Below are positions 6,965 to 12,773 of a stretch of DNA of 12,773 nt, piece after piece. Below the pieces are notes generated by a model. That model worked only from the letters and a program-made list of their open reading frames with translations. It was not told where the DNA came from and searched no databases. The position numbers were made by a program, and so were the translations under genes. Positions within the stretch are counted from its first letter, which is position 1, and each line of letters opens with the position of its first letter. Origin of the DNA: a virus; UHGV virus genome UHGV-1672225; one strand, written 5' to 3'.

Positions 6965-7476
6965 TGATGGCCCCCGTCATTTCTGGTGCTTTTCACCGTG
7001 CGGCTTCTTAAAAACCTGCCATCACGAACAACAGACACTTCTCGTTTACCCAACCTCATTTCACGGCGGTAACATTCAGAAAATGCCTCGTCCGGCATCA
7101 TATAAATGCGACGCTTCGCCTCCGTATCCAGAAGGGAACGGCTTGGGGTTACATATAAGAACGACTCATCAATAGGGACAAAACCACGAGCAAGAATTGC
7201 TGGCAGAATACCAGGAAGAACGCAGAAAACAGCTCCACGATGCAGCAACATCTGGTACTCCATGACCTCCGTAATCCCCGTAACGACTGTTACGGTGTCA
7301 CGTCTGTTACGGCTGGCAACCAGTCGCTGCACACCTCCAATTTTCTGCTCTACAGATAGACGTTTGCTATCGTTATCAATATGATCGATAACAAATCCTT
7401 TAATCGTTTGATCAAGGTAGTGCACCACCTGCGATTGAATCTGGTGATTATCACCAAAGAAGGCCAGAATCATCAT
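6961..7476 (-). CDS. Hypothetical early protein (171 aa)
   Basis: ORF ATGA-coupled to the upstream Cro-like gene; no family recognised. Confidence 0.45.
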   Translation of the reverse strand: MMILAFFGDNHQIQSQVVHYLDQTIKGFVIDHIDNDSKRLSVEQKIGGVQRLVASRNRRDTVTVVTGITEVMEYQMLLHRGAVFCVLPGILPAILARGFVPIDESFLYVTPSRSLLDTEAKRRIYMMPDEAFSECYRREMRLGKREVSVVRDGRFLRSRTVKSTRNDGGHQ

Positions 7477-7967
7477 TCCTCAAGCCTCCCAAGTGCTGAA
7501 CGCCGGGCGTTGCTAATCTCCTTATGAATCAGCTCGATATCGCTGGAATCTTTATTCTTAAGCTCCAGCACGGTAATCGCATCACGAACCTCTGAAACGG
7601 TTACGTGTGAGTGTTTCCAGCGAGCAATGAATCGCGGACCGCGTAGATTGCAACGCTCCGCAGGCATCCCCAGCTCAGAGAAAACCGCTTTCAGCCTTGA
7701 TAAGCAGTTAACAGGGAGATTCCCTTTGATCTTGTTCTGCCGAACCGATGTGCCATCGCTACGCTGGCGCTGACGTTCGGCAAAATCTGCCGCCCATTGC
7801 TGGACGTTAATCCGGCCTTCCGAATACGCCACCAGCAGCGTCAGGTTATCCGCACGAGGGAATCTCTCGAAGCGATACCAGGCACCAATCAGTGATGACG
7901 TAAAGCCAAACTTTCTGGCAACACCAATTTGGCCTCCATTTTCGTCAACCCACTCCTGAAAGGTCAT
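7473..7967 (-). CDS. Cro-like HTH early regulator with C-terminal extension
   Basis: Divergent from the CI-like gene; helix-turn-helix-like segment GGQIGVARKFGFTSSLIGAWYR near the N-terminus; GGAG RBS; sigma70-like promoter and operators immediately upstream. Confidence 0.45.
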   Translation of the reverse strand: MTFQEWVDENGGQIGVARKFGFTSSLIGAWYRFERFPRADNLTLLVAYSEGRINVQQWAADFAERQRQRSDGTSVRQNKIKGNLPVNCLSRLKAVFSELGMPAERCNLRGPRFIARWKHSHVTVSEVRDAITVLELKNKDSSDIELIHKEISNARRSALGRLEE

Positions 7968-7986
7968 TTAACGAACTCCAGTTAAA

Positions 7987-8022
7987 ACCACGATACGTGG
8001 TATTAAAACCACATATCGTGAG
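7987..8022. promoter_or_regulatory. Two adjacent operator-like palindromes (ACCAC-N5-GTGGT type)
   Basis: ACCACGATACGTGGT at 7987-8001 is a perfect inverted repeat; ACCACATATCGTGAG at 8008-8022 is imperfect. Both are preceded by AAA. Confidence 0.55.
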
Positions 8023-8030
8023 TTTTTCAA
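8002..8030 (-). promoter_or_regulatory. pR-like sigma70 promoter for the leftward early operon
   Basis: On the minus strand TTGAAA (8030-8025), a 17-nt spacer, then TTTAAT (8007-8002); the spacer is operator B and the predicted start lies in operator A. Confidence 0.5.
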
Positions 8031-8089
8031 TGGGCGAAACAAAAAATAACCTTCTATTTGTGGTCCACCTCTCGTCTTACCATGTGAAA

Positions 8090-8104
8090 ACCACTAAATG
8101 TGGT
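8090..8104. promoter_or_regulatory. Operator-like palindrome on the repressor-proximal side
   Basis: ACCACTAAATGTGGT, a perfect 5-bp half-site inverted repeat about 40 bp upstream of the CI-like start. Confidence 0.5.
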
Positions 8105-8141
8105 AATGTATAAATAACCCACCATTCACGATTGATGAGAC

Positions 8142-8798
8142 ATGAAAAGCAACGACGAGAACATCAAGAAAGAAATAGGTCTGCGCATTCAGACTCTACG
8201 GAAACAATCCGGCATGACTGCCGGAGATCTCCAGCAAGTCACTGGAATAGGCTTAAGCACCTTGCAGAACTATGAGGCCGGATTAAGACAACCATCTATA
8301 CCTGCCATCAAGAAAATCGCGCACGCCCTGAAAGCATCAGCGCCTTATATCGCGTGCTTAACAGATAACCCGTTCCCACCCCAGAATACTAACGCTCCTG
8401 TTATTCCTGGGCTTGTAGCTATAAAAAATGACATAGCATCGCACGCCGGAGAAAAGCCAGTGCTGGCGATAGAACAGGAGATTCTACGAAGCAAGAACAT
8501 CAACCCATCGTCTCTGTCAGTTCTCCAGAGCAACGATGAGTTAATGTCACCAACAATATCCCCAGGCTCCCAAGTCCTGATTAATACAGACGATACAGAG
8601 ATTCATGAGGGGATCTATGCCCTTGAAGACAGAAATGGCCTGGTTGTTTTGAGGCACTGTAGAGTCATACCGGGTGACAATGCTGTTATGCTGTCAACCG
8701 AAAGGGATGCTGAAATGAACACTAAGCATCTGAATAACGAGGAATTTAAGCGTTATAAAGTTCTTGGCCGCGTAGTTAGTGTTGTCAACTGGTTATGA
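8142..8798 (+). CDS. CI-like phage repressor (XRE-type HTH plus S24 LexA-like peptidase domain)
   Basis: N-terminal LRIQTLRKQSGMTAGDLQQVTGIGLSTLQNYEAG is HTH-like; the C-terminal 100 aa has an S24-like fold pattern; divergent from the Cro-like gene. Confidence 0.7.
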   Translation: MKSNDENIKKEIGLRIQTLRKQSGMTAGDLQQVTGIGLSTLQNYEAGLRQPSIPAIKKIAHALKASAPYIACLTDNPFPPQNTNAPVIPGLVAIKNDIASHAGEKPVLAIEQEILRSKNINPSSLSVLQSNDELMSPTISPGSQVLINTDDTEIHEGIYALEDRNGLVVLRHCRVIPGDNAVMLSTERDAEMNTKHLNNEEFKRYKVLGRVVSVVNWL

Positions 8799-8804
8799 TA
8801 CACA

Positions 8805-8822
8805 GCACGGCGAAAGCCGTGC
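8805..8822 (+). terminator. Hairpin after the repressor gene (weak or partial terminator)
   Basis: GCACGGC-gaaa-GCCGTGC, 7-bp stem with a GAAA loop, followed by ATTTCT. Confidence 0.35.
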
Positions 8823-8840
8823 ATTTCTACGCTCAAAAAA

Positions 8841-8855
8841 ACCACATTTTGTGGT
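8841..8855. promoter_or_regulatory. Fourth operator-like palindrome, downstream of the CI-like gene
   Basis: ACCACATTTTGTGGT, same half-sites as the switch-region sites; a TTGACA lies 2 bp downstream at 8857-8862. Confidence 0.5.
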
Positions 8856-8890
8856 TTTGACAACATGTAAAAGTATAAAAGAGGCTACGC

Positions 8891-9265
8891 ATGGAATTAC
8901 ATACAGCCAATAAAAACGAAACTCTGATCACTGCTGGAATCGAAATCCAAGCGTTGAACATAGCGATTGAGTGTATGTTATGCCAAATCATTGATAATGA
9001 GAAAGATATCGACTGGATAGAATCTATCCTTCATCTGGCATCAGAACAAAAAGTCTGCCTCAAAACGGCCTTACAATACGATGTGCCAGCGGTATCGAAG
9101 CTGTGCCAGCCATTGATGGCATATAACAGGGCTATTATTTCTGTATGCCTCATGATTCTTGATGAAACCCCCCCTCTTAGCGACCGCTCAGAAGCTGCTC
9201 TAACCCTCTCACGTAAACAGCGACAGCTAGCAAATCAACTGATATCAACGATAGCTGACCTCTGA
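8891..9265 (+). CDS. Hypothetical protein (124 aa) downstream of the repressor
   Basis: ORF with AAGAGG RBS, own operator-like site upstream and an intrinsic terminator downstream. Confidence 0.5.
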   Translation: MELHTANKNETLITAGIEIQALNIAIECMLCQIIDNEKDIDWIESILHLASEQKVCLKTALQYDVPAVSKLCQPLMAYNRAIISVCLMILDETPPLSDRSEAALTLSRKQRQLANQLISTIADL

Positions 9266-9269
9266 CTGC

Positions 9270-9289
9270 AAGCGGGCTAACGCCCGCTT
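9270..9289 (+). terminator. Intrinsic terminator-like hairpin after the 124-aa gene
   Basis: AAGCGGGC-taac-GCCCGCTT, 8-bp stem, followed by AT-rich sequence. Confidence 0.45.
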
Positions 9290-9290
9290 A

Positions 9291-9392
9291 TATGATTATA
9301 GATTTATATAATTATATAAAACGCTTTTCATCAGCCAAAAAGTTGGTTATGCTTACCTCGTTCTATAAATATAGATTTATAGAATTATATAA
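9291..9392. promoter_or_regulatory. AT-rich arrays with TATA boxes at 8-bp phase upstream of parA (candidate operator or centromere-like site)
   Basis: 9296-9321 TTATAGATTTATATAATTATATAAAA and 9361-9392 TTCTATAAATATAGATTTATAGAATTATATAA; the second also contains the palindrome TCTATA-AA-TATAGA. Confidence 0.4.
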
Positions 9393-9415
9393 CCAAACAC
9401 ATGGAGTCTCGACAA

Positions 9416-10069
9416 ATGACTATCTCTGTAGGTATTTTCAACGGAAAAGGCGGCGTAACAAAATCAACAATTGCCCGTGCTTTAGCAGTTGCTTATGCAA
9501 AGGCTGGCTGGAATGTATGCCTGATCGATATGGATGTGCTTAACGGAACGGTAACGCGTTGGGTACAACGCAGAATGGCCAACAATATCGAACCAGCAAT
9601 CGCGGCGCAGCCGTGCGGCACACCATCACAAGTCCAGAAAATCATCGAATCAGAAGTATACGACCTGGTTATCGTCGATGGCGGTGCCTACGCATCTGAA
9701 TCAGTACCGAAGCTATCTGAATTTCTGGATATGGTTATTTTGCCAACCCGATTCTCTACCGATGACCTGGAAACCACCGTTAACACTGCTCACGGCATCG
9801 TTAAAAAGGGTGTACCAATCAAGAAAATTTGCATGGTGTTTTCCGGCGCGGCTGAAAACGAAGCTGACTATATTGAAGCCCAAGAGTACCTGGCTAATAC
9901 GCCATACTTTGTTGTCGATAAGTACATTCCCCACAAGCCAGCTCTGAGCAAAGCTCAGGATAAGGGCTTAAGCCTCATTGAGTGCTCATACGTTGCGCCA
10001 CGCAAAAAGGCAGACGACGTTATTCAGGGGATTATCAACCAGCTTGAGGCTCTGACTACTGCCGCATAA
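9416..10069 (+). CDS. parA: Small ParA-family (deviant Walker A) ATPase, type Ib partition-like
   Basis: Start at ATG 9416 (GGAG 10 nt upstream) rather than 9401. Deviant Walker A GKGGVTKST, Walker B-like DLVIVDG, about 217 aa. Confidence 0.65.
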   Translation: MTISVGIFNGKGGVTKSTIARALAVAYAKAGWNVCLIDMDVLNGTVTRWVQRRMANNIEPAIAAQPCGTPSQVQKIIESEVYDLVIVDGGAYASESVPKLSEFLDMVILPTRFSTDDLETTVNTAHGIVKKGVPIKKICMVFSGAAENEADYIEAQEYLANTPYFVVDKYIPHKPALSKAQDKGLSLIECSYVAPRKKADDVIQGIINQLEALTTAA

Positions 10070-10100
10070 TATATAATTATAGTTTTATAGATTTATATAA
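10066..10100. promoter_or_regulatory. Third TATA-phased AT-rich array between parA and the RHH gene
   Basis: TATAtaatTATAgtttTATAgattTATAtaag: four TATA boxes at exact 8-bp spacing, overlapping the parA stop. Confidence 0.4.
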
Positions 10101-10112
10101 GAGGGGATACAC

Positions 10113-10361
10113 ATGGCCGCACCATCAAAACCACCAAAGAAGAACAGCAAAGGCGTACCGCCATCGATCGAACAACCGCAGGTTTTCGACCCGACTGAAA
10201 CGCCAACCAGAACCAAATCAGGTGGGGCACAAATGGCGTTTAACGTCGACCCTGAATTTAAACGCGAGTACAAAACGTTCGCCAGCTCAATGGATATGTC
10301 ATTGAAAGAAGTGCTGACAAAGTCTTTTGAGTTACTCAAGGCTCAATACAACCAGAAGTAA
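10113..10361 (+). CDS. Ribbon-helix-helix DNA-binding protein, ParG-like partner of ParA
   Basis: 82 aa; flexible basic N-terminal tail, then MAFNVDPEFKREYKTFASSMDMSLKEVLTKSFELLKAQ with a beta-strand/helix/helix pattern; AAGAGGGGA RBS. Confidence 0.5.
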   Translation: MAAPSKPPKKNSKGVPPSIEQPQVFDPTETPTRTKSGGAQMAFNVDPEFKREYKTFASSMDMSLKEVLTKSFELLKAQYNQK

Positions 10362-10423
10362 GAGAAGGTGACGGCCTCCAGCGCCAACTGTTGGCCGTCG
10401 CGACACAACAAGGGGAATTTGTT

Positions 10424-10573
10424 ATGTCCGAGCAACAATATACACGGTTACTGAAAACTCGTCTAACCGACCTCAAACGGCTGCAAGCTGGCTGCTTATT
10501 TGCCCTGCTATCCACCAGGCCAGAATGGGTACGTGAAGCAGTTCTGAAAGGCTTAATGCGCTCCAGCGTTTAA
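10424..10573 (+). CDS. Small hypothetical protein (49 aa)
   Basis: ATG at 10424 with AAGGGGAA RBS; last ORF before the terminator at about 10590. Confidence 0.3.
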   Translation: MSEQQYTRLLKTRLTDLKRLQAGCLFALLSTRPEWVREAVLKGLMRSSV

Positions 10574-10590
10574 ATTCAGCCATAAAAAAA

Positions 10591-10606
10591 GGCCCCCGAA
10601 GGGGCC
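10591..10606 (-). terminator. Intrinsic terminator hairpin (minus-strand orientation, possibly bidirectional)
   Basis: GGCCCC-cgaa-GGGGCC preceded on the plus strand by 7 A (a U-run on the minus transcript); no T-run on the plus side. Confidence 0.45.
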
Positions 10607-11132
10607 TAATCGCTACTTGCTGCTAATGTTTATCGTCACATTCAGAGCGTTATCAGTAATCTTCCAACCCTCCCCATGTGGCGTAAACAAAGCCCCAGTA
10701 ACAACGATAAAAATACACATACAGTATTTTTTCATTGTATGGCCCTTACAGGCCGTTTCACGGCATCCCCACCGACGAAAACAACGCGAGAGCAAGCACG
10801 GCTGCTTGTGCTTGCATGTACGGCAACGGAGAATCCTCCCCTAAAGTCGGTGCCCGGGTGCGAATCGGCGGGAAGGTCCACAGGTATTTTACGATTATTT
10901 TAAGATTAGTAATAGGAAAGAAATTAAACGAAAAAACTCGTTTATTTTCACAAAATCAGTAACCTACCCACAATCTGTGAGTTTGCAGGCACAACAAGAA
11001 CCACAATTTTTTGAAGCATAATAGTGGACTATTATTACCTTTTGGGTAAAATTAACTTGCTGCTTGTGCTTGCGTGGTTGTTTATACAACAACGTAATGC
11101 TGAAAGGACCGCGAATCCGATCAGCACGAAAG

Positions 11133-11159
11133 AACCGTCCTCAATAGGGCGGTTTTTTT
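11133..11159 (+). terminator. Intrinsic terminator inside the ORF-poor region
   Basis: AACCGTCC-tcaata-GGGCGGTT (8 bp, one G-U) followed by TTTTTGTTT. Confidence 0.5.
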
Positions 11160-11305
11160 GTTTCTGCCTACCAATAAACCCACGCTATGTGGTTGTCTCT
11201 GTTAAAATCCTGCCGTATTGACATGAATGCGCCATTGGTGGACACTTTCCGAGCCGTAGCAAAATCTACGGTCGGGATTGGAACCCCGATAATCATCATG
11301 GCGCA

Positions 11306-11326
11306 TACCGCGTTAGCGGTTTTTTT
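11306..11326 (+). terminator. Second intrinsic terminator in the leader (candidate sRNA 3' end)
   Basis: ACCGC-gtta-GCGGT followed by a 6-T run; a perfect -35 TTGACA lies about 90 nt upstream at 11218-11223. Confidence 0.4.
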
Positions 11327-11491
11327 ATGCGTAAAGCACTGCTACACCCAAATTATGGTGGGGCGTGCGGGGGAGTCGTAAGACTCGCCGGATTCCATGG
11401 TGACCGGTAGTTCCAACCCTGTACGTCTCACCACCCAATGATTGGAACCAGACGGTGGTGAGTATCCTTAACCTTTAAGGGAACTATCACC

Positions 11492-11683
11492 ATGACAAAC
11501 TTACCCCATGACTATTACGTCAATCTCGTAAAGATCCTTCTCAAGAAAGCCTCATACGCCGATAAATTCCGCCTGACTGAAATCATCGAGCGCGAAGCTA
11601 TGCGCATCGCCAGCAACGATAACGCTGTTTCTGACGCAAAAATCTCCCTCGTAACCAAAGTAGTTATGGGAGGTGCAAAATGA
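11492..11683 (+). CDS. Small protein (63 aa) translationally coupled to the antirepressor-like gene (icd-like position)
   Basis: ORF with AAGGGA RBS; its stop overlaps the next ATG (ATGA at 11680-11683). Confidence 0.4.
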   Translation: MTNLPHDYYVNLVKILLKKASYADKFRLTEIIEREAMRIASNDNAVSDAKISLVTKVVMGGAK

Positions 11684-12773
11684 AAACGCTTCCGACCGTT
11701 AACACCCTACAGCCTATCCTGCATAACCAGATCCCCGTTATCACCACGGAGCTGCTTGCCAAACTATATGGCTGTAGCGTCGAATGTCTTCACAGAAATC
11801 ACCACCGTAATAAGTCCCGGTTTACAGAAGGAAAACATTTCATAGTTGTAAAAGGTACAGATCTCCAAAGTTTGAAAATCTCTTTAAGAGATTTTCAAAC
11901 CATCGCGAATAACGTTAGAAAGCTCATCCTCTGGACCGAACGCGGGGCTGCACGTCACGCTAAAATGCTCGAAACCGATCAGGCATGGGATGTATTCGAA
12001 CGGCTGGAAGACTGCTACTTCAACCAGAACGCGCAAACGGCCGCGACCGTAACCGTCTCGCCAAACAATGCTCGTGAGGTTGTCGATACGCTCAACGCCA
12101 AACCGATGTTTTACATTAAAGTGTGCAACAACGAGCCACTCACAACCTCAGCCGATGTTGCCCAGGCATTCAGCACCACAAACAATTCCATCGTTATGGC
12201 CATCGATGCGCTACGCATTCCTCGCACGGCTGCGGCGCGTCACTTCTTTAAAGAGCAACGACCGTTGGAAGGAAGCGACCGCGAAATAACAATCTATCGC
12301 ATGACAAAAGACGGATTTACCTTGCTCATGGAGAGTATCGACGGTCCAGGCGTGAAAGATATCAAGCTGGCCTACATTGAAGCCTTTAACGCTATCAGCA
12401 GCGTGTTAAAAACACAGTACGAGCGTGATCTGGCTAAACGACTGTACCAGGAAAAAACGATTATCCGCGCGGCAACAGAGCATAATCGGCTATTAACGGA
12501 ACCGAACTACAGGAAGGAACTAATCAAGGAGTTTGACAAGGCAACAGGGAAAACCAAAGCGGCGCTAAATCTGCCAGCAATGACTCAGGAAAATGTGATA
12601 TCAGCCTTACTTCTTGATCTGCTCAGAAACGCCAGAGCACTTATCAGCTTTGACGAAAACCTGAATCCTCAGCTCAAGCTACTACCACCGACAGGCAAAG
12701 TAGTCGACCAGGCTGATCACAACAGCATACTCAGCGTACTGGATGCAAACCTGCCAGCCAGGACACTACAGGA
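11680..12773 (+). CDS. ORF6N plus Rha-domain antirepressor-like phage regulatory protein (3' truncated by the window end)
   Basis: Hand translation from ATG 11680 (GGAGG upstream) is open for more than 364 codons to the window end; it is absent from the ORF track because no stop lies in the window. N-terminal region resembles the recalled ORF6N domain; the central region resembles a Rha domain. Confidence 0.6.
   Translation, partial: MKTLPTVNTLQPILHNQIPVITTELLAKLYGCSVECLHRNHHRNKSRFTEGKHFIVVKGTDLQSLKISLRDFQTIANNVRKLILWTERGAARHAKMLETDQAWDVFERLEDCYFNQNAQTAATVTVSPNNAREVVDTLNAKPMFYIKVCNNEPLTTSADVAQAFSTTNNSIVMAIDALRIPRTAAARHFFKEQRPLEGSDREITIYRMTKDGFTLLMESIDGPGVKDIKLAYIEAFNAISSVLKTQYERDLAKRLYQEKTIIRAATEHNRLLTEPNYRKELIKEFDKATGKTKAALNLPAMTQENVISALLLDLLRNARALISFDENLNPQLKLLPPTGKVVDQADHNSILSVLDANLPARTLQ

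Follow-up and report, generated by a model that had tools for sequence, protein, structure and literature searches.

In phage lambda the repressor region runs in the order cI-rexA-rexB-tImm, followed by OL/PL and N. The C1 repressor of P1 acts at many operators, and in N15 the CB repressor reportedly has a distal operator (OL), downstream of cB, through which it controls repA. Here we compare these systems with a locus in virus genome UHGV-1672225, where a gene for a protein of 124 amino acids (aa) follows directly on a gene for a CI-like repressor. The stretch analyzed, called the window below, comprises 12,773 nucleotides (nt), and positions refer to it unless a plasmid is named. With better than even confidence, we read the 124-aa gene as an insulated one-gene early unit that is controlled by a CI operator and that forms a fixed part of the immunity module of a phage-plasmid.

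A first-pass annotation of the window had described an operator-type palindrome between the CI-like gene and the 124-aa open reading frame (ORF), and this proved to be a perfect site, ACCACATTTTGTGGT at 8841-8855, which matches the sites beside cI. The site, which we call O4, lies 43 nt past the cI stop and 36-50 nt 5' of the ATG of the 124-aa gene, within an extended palindrome, AAAACCAC-N5-GTGGTTTT, at 8838-8858. Perfect ACCAC-N5-GTGGT sites occur three times in the window (7987-8001, 8090-8104 and 8841-8855), all around cI. The complete 49-kb plasmid holds eight sites with at most one mismatch, against 0.86 expected, and none of 100 shuffles reached that number. In four lineages the O4 half-sites AAAACCAC and GTGGTTTT do not change at all, in contrast to the 5-nt spacer and the flanks; the half-sites are also retained in L009 and L008 (relatives are given by such numbers where they have to be told apart). 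Since the lineages are saturated at synonymous sites (proportion of synonymous differences, pS, 0.65-0.85), this invariance points to selection on the operator. Operator-like sites occupy the O4 position even among relatives with no more than 28-34% identity in CI: in L008 there are one half-site and one full site, 21 bp apart, and L011 and L020, both from Serratia, have two AACCACA half-sites each. Throughout the orthologous regions the site stands 5' of the 124-aa gene, no more than 31-45 nt away from the ribosome site. By consensus, over-recurrence and conservation alike, O4 has the sequence properties of a genuine operator of the CI-like repressor of the element.

The remaining operators of the window precede cI. 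O1 (ACCACGATACGTGGT, 7987-8001), in the divergent control region of the cro-like gene and cI, is a perfect match that is kept in relatives, and 21 bp from it, centre to centre, lies the imperfect O2 (ACCACATATCGTGAG, 8008-8022), which has two mismatches and belongs to repeat family D2/D3. O3 (ACCACTAAATGTGGT, 8090-8104), just 5' of cI, is a perfect match and is invariant among relatives. Outside the window, a perfect CI operator was found 5' of the repA leader in two plasmids, at 42042-42056 in pEC488-4 (L018), abutting TATGAT, and at 14712-14726 in the Salmonella plasmid pAR-0407-1 (L019), abutting TATGAA. A conserved TTGACT-16-TAT(G/C)AT promoter precedes it by about 95 bp in both plasmids. 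Judging by the distribution of these sites, CI evidently acts at dispersed single operators around the plasmid, and the phage repressor may gate plasmid replication at repA, in the manner of CopB of IncFII or CB of N15.

The 124-aa gene appears to be separated from cI not only by O4 but also by a hairpin, which the first-pass annotation had not listed. It follows the cI stop on the plus strand (GCACGGC-GAAA-GCCGTGC, 8805-8822; -15 kcal/mol, z = -4.4). Relatives keep the stem but differ in the loop, and a run of six to seven T's follows the hairpin in L003, L005, L007, L008, L009, L011 and L020. In the window itself the T-tract is weak. The hairpin is thus best read, from its conservation and the T-runs of the relatives, as a predicted intrinsic terminator of the cI transcript that would insulate the 124-aa gene. 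From its end (8822) to the Shine-Dalgarno sequence (SD; AGAGG, 8880-8884, plus strand), which stands 6 nt before the ATG and of which GAGG is kept in all seven lineages, there are only about 57 nt, with O4 in the middle. As O4 fills this short interval between terminator and ribosome site, any promoter there must overlap O4.

A search of both strands near O4 for a sigma-70 consensus promoter found none. A position-weight scan of the seven orthologous regions likewise gave no strong sigma-70 promoter, and all candidates overlapped O4; the recurring ones put the operator in the spacer or over the -35, as in TTTAAA-17-TTTAGT of the Salmonella lineage. The TTGACA that had been noted beside the palindrome is indeed present (8857-8862, plus strand), but it does not make a credible -35: there is no -10 at 16-18 nt, where the best candidates, AGAGGC and GAGGCT, fall within the SD, and in relatives the hexamer decays to TTGACG, TTAACG or TTAGTG. 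At most it would be a chance hexamer or a piece of the T-rich operator flank. We also considered that TTGACA could serve as a -35 with CI activating from just upstream, as at lambda PRM. This would require AGAGGC as a -10 inside the conserved SD and a transcription start at or after the ATG, and the geometry was rejected because all lineages keep the SD and the N-terminus. For the same reason, the conservation of the SD and of the N-terminus MELHTA, a leaderless transcript is excluded. Matches to LexA boxes were limited to ones with one mismatch, at roughly chance level, and none lay near the 124-aa gene.

At its other end the gene is followed by a hairpin, AAGCGGGC-TAAC-GCCCGCTT, at 9270-9289 on the plus strand (-14.9 kcal/mol, z = -4.2), which ends the one-gene unit and precedes the partition-site repeats. 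It had been called a clean terminator with an 8-bp stem; the 8-bp stem is there, but the U-tract is weak (AUAUGAUU) and a scan for the terminator consensus made no call. Its counterpart in relatives is a GC hairpin followed by TTTATATAA.

That the 124-aa ORF (ATG 8891, stop 9265, plus strand) stands directly downstream of the repressor gene agrees with the first description, and it has the marks of a real gene in its well-placed SD, its conserved N-terminus and its evolution under purifying selection. The ratio of non-synonymous to synonymous substitutions (dN/dS) is 0.27 in the unsaturated pair L003-L005 and 0.17 elsewhere. The protein belongs to PHROG 7632, a family with no function assigned (E = 6.1e-84, residues 1-124 on positions 1-124 of the 124 of the profile), and apart from this match the earlier remark that it has no recognisable family holds: searches of Pfam, NCBIfam and PADLOC with the protein and 12 family members returned nothing, or noise of at most 30 residues, the sole PADLOC match to the protein being a sub-threshold NucC (E = 0.032). 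An exhaustive profile search of 1.84 billion representatives gave only seven matches, all of the same family, and an alignment-based search of a larger collection gave 25 clusters, which added a Serratia clade with the same synteny. Members are 121-131 aa long, and all named sources are Enterobacterales.

Structure prediction and remote homology search had both been proposed as checks on this protein. The AlphaFold2 model is a confident up-down four-helix bundle (predicted local distance difference test, pLDDT, 90; predicted template modelling score, pTM, 0.83), whereas the sequence-profile search of the PDB gave nothing below E = 0.04. The Coi protein of P1 was tried as a homologue and rejected; it has 69 aa, and hhalign gave a probability of 0.3% (E = 0.22). 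The family is acidic, with isoelectric points (pI) of 4.5-5.0 and net charges of -4 to -12. No consistent transmembrane segment was found among its members, as the maximum Kyte-Doolittle hydropathy over 19 residues, KD(19), is below 1.6 in 18 of 20 and the N-terminus is polar; nor did the 124-aa protein show a signal peptide or an enzymatic or DNA-binding signature. The product is therefore described here as a predicted soluble, acidic four-helix bundle. Some database variants (P0008, P0009, P0011 and P0012) are truncated by frameshifts near an A5 run at codons ~46-54 (window ~9045-9055), and in assembly GCA_004745395.1 cI is split as well. These truncated variants are probably a homopolymer sequencing error or a decaying copy, and we set them aside as evidence on dispensability.

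The position of the gene is constant. Every homologue with a readable neighbourhood lies directly 3' of a CI-like gene, in Yokenella, Citrobacter, Salmonella and Serratia as well as in metagenomic contigs, and wherever the contig continues it lies directly 5' of parA and an 82-aa gene. Among the relatives examined, from E. coli to Serratia, it was never missing or replaced. Vibrio phages whose CI is 26-30% identical have different genes downstream and are uninformative for the 124-aa gene. The rate of change within this fixed order differs widely between genes. Compared with three other lineages, ParA is 92-96% identical, the 82-aa protein 91-97% and the Cro-like protein 73-76%, and the values are 61-65% for CI, 49-60% for the 124-aa protein and 41-54% for the antirepressor encoded further downstream. 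Likewise, dN/dS is highest in the 124-aa ORF among the five genes compared (parA 0.02, p82 0.03, cro 0.04, cI 0.10). By these comparisons the 124-aa ORF is one of the region's fastest-evolving genes, as the genes for CI and the antirepressor are. The jump in identity from the ORF to ParA could be taken for a recombination boundary that ties the ORF to the immunity module, a reading which we rejected because synonymous divergence is saturated everywhere. Since synonymous sites are saturated in all genes, the jump reflects constraint rather than mosaicism.

The repressor next to which the gene is always found (218 aa, 8142-8798, plus strand) consists of an N-terminal domain of the HTH_3 type (Pfam, 4.5e-11) and a divergent S24-like C-terminal domain with a weak Peptidase_S24 match, and it matches the phrog_4 repressor profile at 9.6e-27. 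When the C-terminal domain was aligned with LexA, lambda CI and UmuD, NDELM replaced GxSM and an invariant Arg replaced the catalytic Lys. This apparent loss of the Ser/Lys dyad holds in all relatives, and as CI appears to be without the LexA-type dyad, self-cleavage is unlikely. To judge from these residues, CI would probably need an antirepressor for induction. At the right end of the window, an isrK small RNA (11253-11326, 70 bits), a C4 antisense RNA (11351-11438, 84 bits) and a 63-aa ORF (11492-11683) are followed by a Rha/ORF6N antirepressor gene, which overlaps the 63-aa ORF from 11680 and runs off the window at 12773. In its order this corresponds to the immI arrangement of P1, so that the element has a P1-like immunity system in two parts with a lambda-like CI at its centre. 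About 60 nt 5' of isrK there is also an operator-like site with one mismatch (CCCACGCTATGTGGT, 11179-11193), which may be due to chance, because the immI region of the Salmonella relative showed no equivalent nearby.

How, then, does the locus compare with the described systems? With the ImmC region of P1, where coi is annotated beside c1, it shares a small gene that adjoins the repressor gene on the same strand and stands under the repressor's own operator. In both elements the repressor is not self-cleaving (here as predicted from the missing dyad), the repressor operators are dispersed around the genome, and a second immunity region holds a C4 antisense RNA, a small ORF and an antirepressor. 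In P1, however, coi precedes c1 and shares a transcript with it, whereas the 124-aa gene lies downstream of cI, behind a terminator, and the repressor here is an HTH/S24-like CI rather than of the C1 type. N15 is similar in having a CI-like repressor with isolated operators outside cro/cI, at the gene 3' of the repressor gene and at plasmid replication. There the gene after cB is repA itself, while here it is the 124-aa gene and repA is 9 kb away; and N15 is linear with telomeres, while the element here is circular with an IncFII-like RepA. The order on one strand of repressor unit, terminator, operator, first repressor-controlled gene and terminator-like hairpin is that of lambda, and it places the 124-aa gene at the position of PL/N and not at that of rex. 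Unlike lambda, the locus has a single operator rather than three and a unit of one gene, cI is followed by the terminator with no rex-like genes in between, a PL-like consensus promoter cannot be recognised, and the product is an acidic folded bundle instead of the basic, disordered N. With one gene between two hairpins, a control region for it alone and a slightly lower GC content, the locus also resembles the moron cassettes of lambdoid phages, but it is present in every relative instead of being patchy, and a repressor operator precedes it. In function, its closest counterparts by analogy would most likely be coi of P1 and the CB-controlled gene downstream of cB in N15.

Based on these observations we propose that O4, the ribosome site, the 124-aa ORF and the hairpin after it would make up a self-contained transcription unit. 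CI would bind O4 as it would the operators at cro/cI and repA, judging by sequence geometry and conservation, and in doing so would occlude the promoter of the 124-aa gene and stop transcription that runs on from cI. In the plasmid prophage the gene would be silent or throttled, and it would come on when there is no active CI, i.e. upon entry into a naive cell or at induction. Being soluble and acidic, without catalytic or DNA-binding features, the bundle would most plausibly act by binding another protein. We propose, tentatively, that this protein is CI: once repression slips, the 124-aa protein would bind and weaken CI, giving positive feedback as a functional analogue, not a homologue, of P1 Coi. 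A role as switch modulator is favoured because the gene is always beside cI and is fast-evolving, CI is non-cleavable and P1 Coi provides a precedent. To the statement as a whole, the regulation together with a product that modulates the switch, we give somewhat less than an even chance, and the Coi-like step by itself we consider doubtful. In the widest form of this proposal, to which we give only a small chance, the protein would belong to a new family of repressor-controlled anti-repressors or switch modulators that bind the C-terminal domain of a non-cleavable CI, while CI also gates repA. Such a CI-repressed antirepressor would create a commitment loop by positive feedback, and a single repressor would then tie together immunity, induction and copy number.

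Several observations weigh against this proposal. As no promoter of good consensus was located, the repression geometry rests on spacing arguments and not on a mapped start. The repA gene has an operator yet must be expressed in lysogens, so that at O4, too, control may amount to throttling and not to silence. Structure comparisons show the four-helix-bundle fold to be generic, neither Coi nor any antirepressor family is similar to the protein in sequence, and with a Rha/ORF6N antirepressor already encoded downstream a second one is not required. Identity of the 124-aa ORF tracks that of the CI C-terminal domain in three lineages, which is weakly suggestive, but the rate correlation fails for L009. 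This co-variation was not used as a sign of interaction, as the correlation is no better than with Cro.

The first-pass annotation had pointed to a different role, that of a rex/sie-like gene, since genes co-expressed with a prophage repressor or just downstream of it are classic sites of exclusion or abortive-infection functions. On this reading the gene would be active in the plasmid prophage, with CI setting its level, and would exclude or abort superinfecting phages. The place next to the repressor gene fits such lysogenic conversion, as does the moron-like cassette of promoter, gene and hairpin with a GC content (43.2%) slightly below the 46-48% of the neighbours; nun of HK022, at the equivalent position, encodes an exclusion factor expressed in the lysogen; and the operator is no proof of silence, given that repA has one too. 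On the other hand, a conserved terminator lies between cI and the 124-aa gene, O4 occupies the only space for a promoter, and an activating geometry cannot be reconciled with the SD and start codon, both of which are conserved. The product, with no consistent transmembrane segment and no signal peptide, resembles neither a Rex/Sie membrane protein nor a homologue of RexA/RexB, the only match to a defence model is the sub-threshold NucC, and the gene is never absent or replaced in relatives, in which the turnover of cargo takes place after the par genes. The exclusion reading is weakened by these results and we regard it as unlikely. The 124-aa gene is probably not one that dormant phages express to block others, but one that the repressor most likely holds down in the dormant state. 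The same regulatory evidence would equally suit a CI-repressed early protein that targets a host factor, be it restriction, a RecBCD-type enzyme or some other defence or housekeeping function, at entry or during lytic growth. Many phage early inhibitors are small, acidic and all-helical, and that the gene evolves faster than any other of the region is what an arms race would lead one to expect. Anti-defence genes are usually accessory and variable, however, whereas this gene is found at the same place in every relative; DNA mimics have net charges far from the -4 to -12 seen here, there is no structure of the Ocr, Gam or ArdA type among the top structural matches, and a dN/dS below 0.3 gives no sign of positive selection. 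An anti-host function is, in our view, possible but rather unlikely.

Two further explanations were weighed. O4 could be mainly a distal looping operator: by pairing with O1-O3 over a distance of some 750-850 bp it would make repression of the early promoter tighter and autoregulate cI, a role compatible with the other readings. OL of lambda and FL/FR of 186 are precedents for such operators, and O4 is indeed a lone perfect site, which the cI gene separates from O3, 751 bp away. CI has a C-terminal domain of the oligomerisation type, and L008 and L011 carry two sites 19-21 bp apart, as O1/O2 do. We consider looping as the main role improbable, as the site is always in the 5' region of the 124-aa gene, near its ribosome site, and a similar lone operator at a promoter-like site 5' of repA suggests local control. 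Less probable still is that the 124-aa protein serves as an accessory factor of partition or replication, working with the ParA/82-aa system or RepA, for instance by switching off plasmid-mode maintenance when CI is lost. Its gene is always directly 5' of the partition-site repeats and parA, and the operator at repA shows that CI-linked control of maintenance would exist in the element. Type Ib partition systems are complete with two proteins, though, and the par operon, which lies beyond a hairpin, is equipped with a repeat/operator region of its own. Between lineages, identity is 91-97% for ParA and the 82-aa protein but 49-60% for the 124-aa protein, and this difference between slow and fast argues that the ORF is not co-evolving with the partition proteins.

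The element itself could be traced in sequence databases. The region 7900-10100 is 99.9% identical to ~58 circular plasmids of 47-50 kb, nearly all from Escherichia (e.g. pEC488-4), and 99% identical to three Yersinia myophages, vB_YpM_39, 41 and 44. The whole plasmid encodes head, contractile-tail and lysis genes as well as RepA, ParA and toxin-antitoxin genes, and as phage structural and lysis genes thus stand beside genes for plasmid maintenance, the window is part of a phage-plasmid; by gene content and size, the source is a myovirus-type phage-plasmid of ~48 kb. The locus is present in 71 of 5,426 complete E. coli genomes (1.3%), with 72 of the 73 matching places on plasmids. One of the carriers is named 'FDA strain Seattle 1946', which we take to be the reference strain ATCC 25922; in that strain the locus corresponds to 32431-32921 of plasmid NZ_CP149501.1. 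Relatives of the element occur in Salmonella, Citrobacter, Yokenella, Klebsiella and Serratia, and also as infectious Yersinia phages. A literature search by phage names, protein accession and plasmid accessions returned no study of this phage-plasmid, and its lysis-lysogeny circuitry is apparently unstudied.

To the left of cI, the Cro-like gene (164 aa, 7473-7967, minus strand) is the first gene of a divergent early operon that includes genes for a Ref nuclease, DUF1064 and DUF3560. Only the first ~53 residues of its product resemble a helix-turn-helix (HTH) protein of the Cro/repressor type (phrog_35, E = 0.002), the remainder being an uncharacterised extension (PHROG 7452). To the right of the 124-aa gene, AT-rich repeats (9288-9400) lie 5' of parA (9416-10069), and further AT-rich repeats (10069-10108) lie between parA and the 82-aa gene (10113-10361), the product of which belongs to PHROG 6024 and has no Pfam family. 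The repeats, which thus flank parA on both sides, are iterated from units such as TATAGATTTATATAATTATATAA and probably serve a type Ib system of ParA and a small protein as partition site and operator. Right after the 82-aa gene there is a 49-aa ORF (10424-10573), of which counterparts of 48-49 aa were called in L004, L016, L020 and L022.

The slot after the par genes (10362-11250) varies between relatives. It holds a ryfA-like RNA in the window, NinX in L005, DUF7706 and Tlde1 in L020, an IS21 element in L021 and an HTH gene in the Yersinia phage. On this comparison the cargo hot spot of the element family is the slot between the 82-aa gene and the isrK/C4 module, and not the position after cI. 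The RNA is a full-length match to the ryfA family at 10585-10881 on the minus strand (142 bits, gathering score 80) and ends at a bidirectional GC hairpin at ~10586-10610. The ryfA family is linked to a small toxic protein of the type I toxin kind, and possibly the ryfA-like RNA is a plasmid addiction or cargo element.

Taken together, nothing that we observed at this locus lies outside known phage regulatory logic. A gene adjacent to a repressor is not necessarily a lysogenic-conversion gene, and here the placement of terminator and operator points the opposite way. The 124-aa gene is the only unexplained fixed component of the immunity module of the element. If it is merely an early gene, the finding is an ordinary one. 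If its product is indeed a switch modulator, it would represent a new protein family among the few Coi-like feedback elements, and it would help to explain how a non-cleavable CI is inactivated.

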